A stretch of DNA of 64,000 bases, taken from an uncultured Prolixibacteraceae bacterium. GTDB taxonomy: Bacteria; Bacteroidota; Bacteroidia; Bacteroidales; FEN-979. Each line of letters begins with the position of its first letter. The stretch's first letter is position 1. The notes beneath the pieces are model-generated. The model made no database searches, was not told the DNA's origin, and worked only from the letters and a program-made list of their open reading frames with translations. Below are positions 24,833 through 26,230 of this stretch, one piece after another. The position numbers were made by a program, and so were the translations under genes. The stretch lies in the NCBI GenBank assembly GCA_964616825.1, contig CAZTSX010000002.1, forward strand, positions 149,054-213,053, read 5' to 3'.

Positions 24833-26230
24833 ATGAGCGGTTATCTCATCCGTAATGCAAACATCGTCAACGAAGGAAAAATCTTTGTGGGGGATGTATT
24901 GGTCGAAGGAGATCGAATTCTGAAAATAGCATCCAGCATCGAGCATCAATGTCATTGCGAGGAGCAGAGCGACGAAGCAACAGCACCGAGCACCGAGCAC
25001 CGAGCATCGAGCATCGAGACCATCGACGCCACCGGCAAATACCTTCTCCCCGGCATCATCGACGACCAGGTACATTTTCGCGATCCCGGATTGACTCACA
25101 AAGGGGATCTTTTTTCCGAGAGCCGGGCTGCTGTCGCAGGAGGTGTGACATCATTTATGGATATGCCAAATACCGATCCAAAAACAACAACCCTGGCGTT
25201 ACTGGAGGAGAAGAATAAGATTGCGGCTTCAAAAGCGCTGGCGAACTACGCCTTCTTTTTTGGAGCAACCAATGAGAACCTGGATGAGATTCGACGAATC
25301 GATCCGCATAAGATATGTGGTGTGAAAATCTTTCTGGGGGCATCAACCGGCAACATGCTGGTAGACAATCCAACTACCATCAAAGCAATTCTTGATGAAT
25401 CACCGGTCCTGGTTGCCATCCACGCTGAAGATGAAGAGATCATACAGGCAAACAGCCGAATGTTCAGGGAAAAATATGGAGAAGATGTTCCCATGGAAGC
25501 ACACCCGTTGATCCGATCTGCTGAGGTTTGCTACCGGTCATCGGAACAAGCAGTGAAACTGGCTCGCGAAAGGGATTCCAGGCTCCATATCCTTCACCTC
25601 TCAACGACTCGGGAACTGGAACTTCTTGACCGTGGAATGCCGTTGAAAGAGAAACGCATCACCGGAGAGGTATGTGTCCATCATCTCTGGTTTAACGACT
25701 CCGATTACAAACGGCTGGGCGCACGGATCAAATGGAATCCGGCAATCAAATCAGCTGCCGATCAGCAAGCTTTACTAACTGGTATCCTGGATGACACCAT
25801 TGATATTATCGCTACCGACCATGCGCCACATCTCCTGGAGGAGAAAGCCAACCCCTATTTTTCCTGCCCGTCAGGCGGCCCGCTGATACAGCACACCCTG
25901 GTGGCCATGCTTGAATTTTATCATCAGGGGAAAATCCCCCTTGAACAAGTGGTTCAGAAGATGGCTCATAATGTAGCTGAACTGTATCGAATCGAACAAA
26001 GAGGCTACATCCGCGAAGGTTATTATGCCGACCTCGTACTGGTTGACCTGAACGCTCCCTGGATGGTGGCGAGTGAAAACATCCTCTACAAATGCGGTTG
26101 GTCACCCTTTGAAGGGACTACCTTTCAGTCGGCCGTTGACTCCACCTGGGTGAACGGCCACCTGGCCTATCGCCAGGGGAAAGTTTATGAATCCCATCGG
26201 GGGAAACGATTATCTTTTTATCATGACTAA
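24833..26230 (+). CDS. pyrC: Dihydroorotase (amidohydrolase) carrying a 25-aa in-frame insert
   Basis: [12 protein letters not shown], the ATDHAPH motif, and overall dihydroorotase-type sequence. Confidence 0.85.
   Translation: [465 protein letters not shown]
24944..25018 (+). repeat. 75-bp in-frame repeat-element insertion: a 30-bp core plus a heptamer array
   Basis: Flanked by the direct repeat AGCATCGAG (24935-24943 and 25010-25018). The core TCATTGCGAGGAGCAGAGCGACGAAGCAAC lies at 24952-24981, followed by GCACCGA x3 and GCATCGA x2. Confidence 0.8.

Follow-up and report, generated by a model that had tools for sequence, protein, structure and literature searches.

The window analysed here, i.e., the whole stretch of 64,000 nucleotides (nt) from contig CAZTSX010000002.1 of an uncultured Prolixibacteraceae bacterium (assembly GCA_964616825.1, positions 149,054 to 213,053), carries at positions 24833..26230 of its forward strand the pyrC gene, encoding a dihydroorotase of 465 amino acids. 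According to the list of open reading frames (ORFs), the homologues, the PDB structure 2GWN and an AlphaFold2 (AF2) model, this coding sequence (CDS) is intact save for one expanded loop, which is made of translated repeats and is the subject of the present analysis. At E ≤ 1e-30, 8000 homologues named dihydroorotase were found, with the Pfam families PF01979/PF07969, and the protein aligns end to end with the dihydroorotase of Porphyromonas gingivalis (2GWN; E = 1e-160). The homologue alignment and 2GWN show that all columns of the catalytic domain are conserved and that the ORF is uninterrupted.

An earlier inspection of the window, made from its letters only (hereafter the sequence-only reading), had noticed an insert of 75 nt after the residues KIASSIE. 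Rereading the sequence and the ORF confirms that this insert is in frame and free of stop codons. The same reading had named an assembly chimera as the finding that would dispose of its case. Short tandem repeats are indeed error-prone in assembly, and two related loci, L211 and L005, show probable errors. However, at least 31 contigs in NCBI, JGI and ENA encode exactly the same 465-residue protein; samples with this allele include JGI 3300007770, JGI 3300013117 and ENA ERZ23499085. The CDS is moreover identical to that of the window at 1398 of 1398 nt in three independent assemblies from different projects (contigs of 296, 215 and 196 kb). The loop is thus not an assembly artefact, and a chimera or a collapsed repeat can for practical purposes be dismissed.

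The repeat-derived segment is 91 nt long (24928-25018) and has three parts, all read on the forward strand. The 5' part (24928..24948) is a heptamer microsatellite of three units, AGCATCC AGCATCG AGCATCA, delineated with Tandem Repeats Finder (TRF) and a periodicity scan; it aligns with the first units of an array found in the closest orthologue (loci L001 and L128). It is followed by 33 nt, or 11 codons, ATGTCATTGCGAGGAGCAGAGCGACGAAGCAAC (24949..24981), which form the solo left arm of a palindromic repeat tagged with CGTC or TGTC and are absent from the orthologue at 91% identity; the limits of this arm are uncertain by about 3 nt. The 3' part (24982..25018) is again a heptamer microsatellite, comprising AGCACCG three times, AGCATCG twice and a final AG (5.3 units), detected by TRF and homologous to the 3' units of L001 and L128. 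TRF assigns a period of 7 to 24928-24947 (2.9 copies) and to 24982-25018 (5.3 copies, 96% matches), and the consensus of the units is AGCAYCG. The sequence-only reading had described a 30-bp core plus five heptamer units; both components are present, but the core (24952-24981) is the 33-nt arm and the segment measures 91 rather than 75 nt.

The arm has no flanking duplication; it splits a single heptamer unit (ATCA^AGC). The 9-mer AGCATCGAG, previously taken for a pair of flanking repeats, occurs in the window at 24935, 25003 and 25010 and, on the minus strand, at 60006 and 60013, that is, in five copies where 0.42 are expected. At the protein level, the heptamer array is translated in all three phases in turn, which gives a seven-residue repeat, SIEHRAS/STEHRAP. 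Since none of the six frames of AGCATCG and AGCACCG includes a stop codon, such an array is harmless to the ORF as long as the frame is kept; the arm is also free of stops in five of its six frames. A role at the RNA level is unsupported: the predicted fold of the pyrC insert is no better than that of shuffled sequence (z = -0.35), and Rfam gave no family for the pyrC region.

The loop site in orthologous dihydroorotases

The window allele is best understood by comparing its DNA with that of P0001, the closest orthologue (loci L001 and L128; 91% protein identity). There, an unbroken array of 11 heptamers, starting with ATCCAGC ATCGAGC ATCCGGC ATCGAGC ACCGAGC, occupies the place where the window has three units, the 33 nt of the arm and five units, i.e., eight units instead of 11. 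Two changes thus separate the alleles, a 33-nt (11-codon) insertion and a shift in array length by three units (21 nt, 7 codons), and neither of them disturbs the frame even when taken singly. The net difference is 33 - 21 = 12 nt, or four residues (465 versus 461 amino acids), and all six members of the P0001 cluster have 461 residues. Because the array is uninterrupted in this closest orthologue, the 9-mer repeats predate the core and do not represent a target-site duplication. The absence of the core from an orthologue at 91% identity agrees with the very recent acquisition proposed earlier.

The length of the loop, taken as the segment between two conserved anchors, was measured in 120 orthologues. 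Of the 102 orthologues at 67% identity or less, 101 have a loop of 14-22 residues. In the 18 closest ones (70-92% identity), it reaches 17-74 residues where complete and consists of repeat-encoded peptides that are mutually unrelated; no sequence is conserved at the site among these relatives. A metagenome scan for further close relatives of pyrC returned mostly loci at 64% identity or less. The repeats found at the loop are diverse. GGGATCC and GCGAATC heptamers are present in L007, ATCCCGG heptamers in L129 and L130, and about ten GCACAGG-type units followed by ATCCCGG units in L211. The L003 loop (10087-10190 of that locus) contains heptamers, two GC-rich hairpins and heptamers again. In L005 (~2870-2925) and L006 (~945-1000), the loop is a long GC-rich palindrome encoding SPPSPPLLKERGLGV; a representative of this palindrome in the L003/L005/L006 group reads CACCCCCTCTCCTGAAGGAGAGGGGGTTGGGGGTGAGG. 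The sequence-only reading had conceded that the insert would be an ancient feature if every orthologue, close or distant, carried a homologous loop about as long. The pattern is a different one, with non-homologous repeats in close relatives and a short plain loop in 101 of the 102 distant ones. The alignment with orthologues bears out the absence of the core from the nearest relative, but the loop itself is filled with repeats across the clade. Versions of the GC-rich palindrome that look degenerate were also seen in pyrC orthologues at 61-66% identity (P0019, P0021 and P0117).

In a census of 87 pyrC loci, eight have an array in the loop and all eight are members of the clade; the two other clade loci carry the palindrome, so that repeats occupy the loop in 10 of 10 clade loci. 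No loop array was seen in the 77 more distant loci, and no convincing array was found elsewhere in pyrC in the same census. In seven clade loci, the distance between the anchors is divisible by three. Together with the in-frame, stop-free insert of the window, this is in line with the selection for frame preservation put forward in the sequence-only reading. In L211 (GCA_014860625.1, 1820-2060), the distance is 202 nt, leaving a remainder of 1, and pyrC is split into two overlapping ORFs. The +1 frame change sits inside about 130 nt of heptamer arrays and is the effect expected from one extra 7-nt unit. The gene could be a pseudogene or a phase variant, or else this short-read metagenome-assembled genome (MAG) may contain a miscounted repeat. 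The late gene start of L005 was considered as a second frameshift of the loop and rejected, the cause being a 1-nt indel near codon 9 (L005 2782-2815), outside the repeats, probably an error of long-read assembly.

The AF2 model, built from 121 sequences, has a mean predicted local distance difference test (pLDDT) score of 93.8 and template modelling (TM) scores of 0.92/0.95 to 2GWN. Its only poorly modelled stretch is a coil at residues ~34-60, where pLDDT falls to about 50 (below 55 over ~41-60). This coil lies between the beta-strands 28-33 and 61-65 of the N-terminal beta-sandwich, and the loop of 2GWN is about 15 residues shorter at the corresponding point. The insert thus falls within this low-pLDDT coil of the model. 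As to surface exposure, which the sequence-only reading had proposed to check, the predicted disorder suggests that the loop is exposed to solvent.

The repeat arm, the heptamers and known repeat families

The distribution of the arm was studied by scanning one genome per species with the 28-nt pattern CATTGCRAGGAGCNNAGCGACGAAGCAA. The pattern is present in at least 120 loci, each from the genome of a different species, in many phyla. The matches listed include many Bradyrhizobium and other Alphaproteobacteria, Gammaproteobacteria, Chryseobacterium, Bacteroidales and Rikenellaceae, as well as Anaerolineae, Armatimonadota, Omnitrophota, Spirochaetes, Bacillota and Planctomycetota. The motif is usually the left arm of an imperfect palindrome of ~85 nt, (C)GTCATTGCGAGGAGCGAAGCGACGAAGCAATCCAG, 10-30 nt, CTGGATTGCTTCGCTTCGCTCGCAATGAC(G). 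As single-stranded DNA (ssDNA), the whole element folds at -29.8 kcal/mol (z = -6.9). Among the matches listed, 126 arms are scorable; 90 of them have the 5' tag CGTC and 26 have TGTC, TCCAG is the commonest tail (49/126), and arms outside Bacteroidota are mostly paired (100 paired, 21 solo), whereas five of the six Bacteroidota arms are solo (Fisher p = 0.0013). Outside the window, no long ORF extends across four of the five solo arms from Bacteroidota. Both arm copies of the window are solo. The pyrC copy has the tag TGTC (aTGTCATTGCG), the tail CAGC, which possibly reflects a 2-nt deletion, and no partner arm. With its TGTC tag, truncated tail and missing partner, and with no GIY-YIG gene in the window, it looks like a degenerate copy.

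Several observations on the arm itself may be added here. The variable NN positions of the 28-nt core (24966-24967 in the window) correspond to loop bases one and two of a GC-NNA-GC mini-hairpin, whose commonest form in loci L008-L127 is GCGAAGC, the sequence of a very stable DNA mini-hairpin. That variation is confined to loop positions suggests that the inner mini-hairpin matters to the element. In L112 (6603-6630; Bacteroidales MAG Chersky.15_30), the arm lies in a 249-codon open frame (...GHCEERSDEAI...) and may be another in-frame intragenic copy. In L091 (7424-7514; Bacteroidetes MAG PowLak16_MAG5), (TTAGGGA)x4-5 and (TTAGCCA)x3 arrays directly precede a solo arm. A general link between arms and heptamer arrays across phyla was considered and rejected, as L091 and the short case L087 are the only ones of the 131 arms listed that adjoin an array of at least 21 nt. 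Rfam returned only sub-threshold chance matches for the full palindrome (SAH riboswitch, 26 bits versus a gathering score of 37), and no description of the arm sequence came up in a full-text search of the literature.

Two published groups of repeats resemble the arm. The superfamily of CGTC-tagged repetitive extragenic palindromes (REPs), defined by Di Nocera et al. (2013, PMC3733652), has been described from Proteobacteria, Chlorobi, Bacteroidetes, Spirochaetes and Thermotogae. Its members have an unpaired CGTC tag, TGTC or CCTC being allowed, a tail with the consensus CCA and a predominance of head-to-head dimers; the unit forms an 8-9 bp stem starting with complementary A-T pairs and a 4-5 nt loop, with atypical loops noted for Bradyrhizobium CGTC-1 (PMC3733652). 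Intragenic CGTC and GTAG REPs encode 20-30 amino acids, the Rickettsia palindromic elements (RPEs) RPE-4 and RPE-6 are CGTC-4 and CGTC-1 repeats, and no dedicated transposase was known for CGTC REPs (PMC3733652). The arm carries the tag of these repeats, CGTC or TGTC in the proportions given above and TGTC in pyrC. As a single arm, it does not have their stem-loop: it has a 5-bp ATTGC/GCAAT stem, beginning with A-T and T-A, and a loop of ~18 nt.

The second group is associated with the Ssn nucleases. These small GIY-YIG enzymes are site-specific for ssDNA and are flanked by, and cleave near, Ssn-related motifs (SRMs), an example being the Neisseria NTS CGTCATTCCCGCGMAVGCGGGAATCYRG, which is reported to be rarely intragenic (2%; PMC11893778). 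The head CGTCATT and the tail AATCCAG of the arm are the same as in NTS CGTCATTCCCGCGMAVGCGGGAATCYRG. Moreover, in L084 (Sphingopyxis), inverted copies of the arm bracket a small frameshifted GIY-YIG gene, the protein of which shares ~50% identity with an ORF of Neisseria gonorrhoeae and with genes annotated 'GIY-YIG nuclease family'; NCBIfam gave no family for this protein. Homologous small GIY-YIG genes from plasmid records are likewise bracketed by inverted arms in six of six cases (GTCAT, stem, loop, stem, ATCC). Among 855 kb of arm loci, L084 is the only one with a GIY-YIG gene according to tblastn, and a regex scan of the arm loci gave none. The association of GIY-YIG genes with such arms was considered as a new finding and rejected as such, as it is already published as the Ssn/SRM system (PMC11893778). 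Plasmid p1 of Planktothrix agardhii (L215; NZ_LR882964.1, 18462-19513) has a GIY-YIG gene whose neighbours are an MmeI-type restriction-modification gene on one side and the DISARM gene drmA on the other; GTCATTCTGAG... arms lie on both sides of the GIY-YIG gene, three tandem 23-nt copies downstream being among them.

In its position within a gene, the pyrC arm is comparable to intragenic REPs and RPEs. In both cases, a dispersed palindromic repeat with a CGTC/TGTC tag at one end is read in frame in a housekeeping gene, adds ~10-30 residues at a presumably tolerant surface position and leaves the protein intact. In pyrC, the dispersed repeat is translated in an intact conserved ORF, and the exposure of its site is deduced from the disorder predicted by the model. 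The pyrC case differs from RPEs in that it involves half a palindrome, located within a microsatellite rather than in unique sequence, in that its host is a free-living member of the Bacteroidia and not an obligate intracellular alphaproteobacterium, and in that different repeat families occupy the same site in sister lineages.

Heptamer repeats, for their part, are the commonest class of long simple sequence repeats (SSRs) and are attributed to polymerase slippage (Mrazek, 2007, as relayed in PMC4679880). Arrays of this kind occur in cyanobacteria, Beggiatoaceae, Bacteroidetes and Xanthomonas, typically in intergenic DNA, with under-representation in coding DNA (PMC4679880, PMC4692102). Named examples are the short tandemly repeated repetitive (STRR) sequences of Calothrix and TAACTGA repeats (PMC4679880), GGGAATC in Xanthomonas and GGGGAYT in Nostoc (PMC4692102). 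The pyrC arrays resemble these in their head-to-tail 7-nt units, in their fast turnover of length and sequence between close relatives and in their occurrence in Bacteroidetes. With at least three head-to-tail 7-nt copies (2.9 and 5.3 by TRF) that are polymorphic between relatives (8 versus 11 units), they have the properties of long SSRs and STRRs. In contrast to the published arrays, which are mostly intergenic, the pyrC array is translated within an enzyme and its frame is kept across the clade. Arrays of heptamers are dense in this clade as a whole (~0.1-0.8 per kb versus 0.014 per kb in phylum-wide loci).

Origin and meaning of the repeats in pyrC

The explanation that we favor, with a probability of about 0.8, is that the pyrC loop is a clade-specific hot spot of neutral passenger repeats, which are translated, evolve by slippage and occasional insertion, and are cleared by selection when they break the frame. 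An array of the AGCAYCG type would have been present in the permissive loop since the ancestor of the Bacteroidia clade (protein identity of at least 70%), possibly seeded by slippage on the native codons ATC-GAG-A. The number and sequence of the units would then have drifted through replication slippage and homogenisation. Once the 91%-identical lineage had diverged, the 33-nt solo arm would have entered one of the heptamer units, perhaps by Ssn-associated mobilisation, by template switching or as a full palindrome that later lost one arm, and other small structured repeats would occasionally have landed in or beside the array. Throughout, purifying selection on dihydroorotase would have removed variants that break the frame or introduce a stop. 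Neither the heptamers nor the arm would serve the enzyme, and both could persist because the loop tolerates any sequence. In an important biosynthetic gene such as pyrC, only net lengths divisible by three would survive, such as 33 nt (11 codons) and 21 nt (7 codons).

Several points weigh against this explanation or parts of it. The neutrality of the repeats is an inference, and, with the present sampling, ancestral seeding followed by turnover is indistinguishable from repeated independent invasions. It should also be noted that the C-terminal anchor of the loop is only ~16 residues upstream of the metal-binding DDQVH motif. As to the arm, its family (CATTGCGAGGAGC...) falls outside the published SRM pattern: HGTCWYN(0-2)YYVSBRHN(0-5)WNVSBRGN(0-2)RNCYNB, used as a regex, matches NTS and three of five other arms flanking GIY-YIG genes, but neither the canonical arm nor the window copies. 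For this reason, we call it a CGTC/TGTC-tagged, SRM-like palindromic repeat arm and claim no formal membership in the SRMs. Its tentative assignment to a family is drawn from the tag, the tail and one example flanking an ssn gene. A single arm also makes a poor hairpin, folding weakly (-2.8 kcal/mol, z = +0.48), and no GIY-YIG gene is found in the 64-kb window, which leaves past or present mobility of the arm in this genome without support.

Among the alternatives, the sequence-only reading had proposed a discrete 75-bp mobile element flanked by a 9-bp target-site duplication, AGCATCGAG. The identical 9-mers at 24935 and 25010 would fit such an element, and the core is indeed a dispersed repeat. 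However, the 9-mers are successive units of the 7-nt tandem array, with a third copy at 25003, and the array is continuous in L001 and L128, whereas the duplicated target of a transposon or of a miniature inverted-repeat transposable element would be single-copy at the empty site; the repeats are thus older than the core. The arm at 24949-24981 lacks the duplication and interrupts one unit. Moreover, excision of the 75 nt, said to restore a conventional N-terminus, would leave a loop of 10 residues, shorter than in any of the 120 orthologues. A discrete element is very unlikely and, in practice, refuted by the comparison with orthologues. The opposite view, that the whole segment derives from slippage or duplication of native codons in place, with no imported DNA, draws on the resemblance of the array units to the downstream native codons ATC-GAG-A (I-E-T/I), a possible proto-repeat for the AGCATCG array. 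It is extremely improbable, as the arm is beyond the reach of slippage and matches a 28-nt pattern found in at least 120 species and at a second locus of the window, and as a GC-rich palindrome occupies the same site in relatives. Slippage as the only origin is excluded for the arm; for the heptamers, it is possible and compatible with the explanation favored here. Slippage thus retains a part in the origin of the segment, as the earlier reading had allowed, since the segment contains heptamer units.

It has also been envisaged that the insert adds an adaptive loop, for instance a Cys/His/acidic site binding a metal or a partner. The HQCHCEE motif does resemble a cluster of metal ligands, and the N-terminal domain, to which the loop belongs, contacts partners in some dihydroorotases. 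Yet this composition results from the repeat arm being read in one frame (the canonical arm gives RHCEERSDEAI) rather than from a selected metal-binding loop, the orthologue at 91% identity lacks the peptide, relatives share no conserved sequence at the site and the model predicts disorder, so that a functional loop is most doubtful. The most interesting rival, although quite unlikely, is that the heptamer array is a contingency locus, in which gain or loss of one unit switches dihydroorotase off and on under selection. A non-triplet microsatellite inside an ORF is the classical architecture of such loci, and the relative L211 is out of frame by +1 inside its arrays. Against phase variation, the window allele is the same in three assemblies and on at least 31 contigs, the six P0001 members are of equal length and the arrays are short and impure (three and five units of mixed variants), which lowers slippage rates. 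There is no obvious benefit in switching off de novo pyrimidine synthesis, a function of central metabolism and not of the surface or restriction type, and the L211 frameshift may be a miscounted repeat of a short-read MAG. A more far-reaching proposal would make 7-nt microsatellites preferred landing pads for hairpin repeats, with slipped-strand ssDNA as the substrate of integration, and/or dihydroorotase phase-variable through slippage. The arm within the pyrC array of the window, the GC-rich palindromes within the L003 array and the L091 arm abutting its TTAGGGA/TTAGCCA array lead to this idea, which we regard as unlikely. If the landing-pad part were true, the pyrC loop would be a natural 'trap' recording mobilisation events of CGTC-REP/SRM repeats.

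Essentially, pyrC is an ordinary case of an important gene that tolerates repeats within it. REP insertions that keep the frame are already known, as are heptamer arrays, and no new mechanism is revealed. What is new is the combination of repeats, the non-triplet array kept in frame in an enzyme of central metabolism and the turnover of repeat families at one site. On the neutral-passenger explanation, one disordered loop in an important enzyme of a free-living member of the Bacteroidia can accommodate translated junk, which extends palindromic repeats inside proteins, best known from Rickettsia, to another phylum and another class of repeats. The locus would also illustrate cleanly, in nature, how frame selection acts on every single mutational step (33 nt, 21 nt), and it could serve as a marker for timing the turnover of heptamer arrays and CGTC/SRM-type arms. 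For annotation, CHCEE(R/Q)SDEA, SIEHRAS and PLLKERGLGV inside proteins should be taken as read-through of repeats and not as domains.

Other repeats in the window

The second arm of the window (47552..47581, forward strand) was recovered by searching for the 30-nt core with three mismatches allowed, at which level 0.00 copies are expected; its setting was read from the sequence and the ORFs. It has a degenerate tag, ATTC, and spans the 4-nt overlap of two convergent genes, 46631..47569 on the forward strand and 47566..50631 on the reverse strand, supplying the C-termini of both (..SLQGA* and ..KFRRLLRR*). The two stop codons, TAG on the forward and TAA on the reverse strand, fall in the two variable NN positions of this arm.

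Units of the pyrC type recur in an intergenic array on the reverse strand (59992..60053), which has ~9 degenerate heptamers and reads TTCAAGA ... ATCGAGC ATCGAGC ACCGAGC ATCCAGT, AGCATCG and AGCACCG units being common to both arrays. The array follows the stop codon of 59515..59991 immediately, lies between convergent genes and thus occupies the site just downstream of genes that is usual for heptanucleotide SSRs. A second in-frame heptamer array, made of abutting CCAGTCA and CACAGTC units, lies on the forward strand at 28252..28303, inside an ORF (27979..28992) for a DUF7948-like secreted protein. BLASTP comparison places a variable loop of this protein exactly at the array, and the loop is non-repetitive in the L005 orthologue. 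The same ORF stops after 337 amino acids, versus 2168 in the orthologue, and the gene may be truncated.

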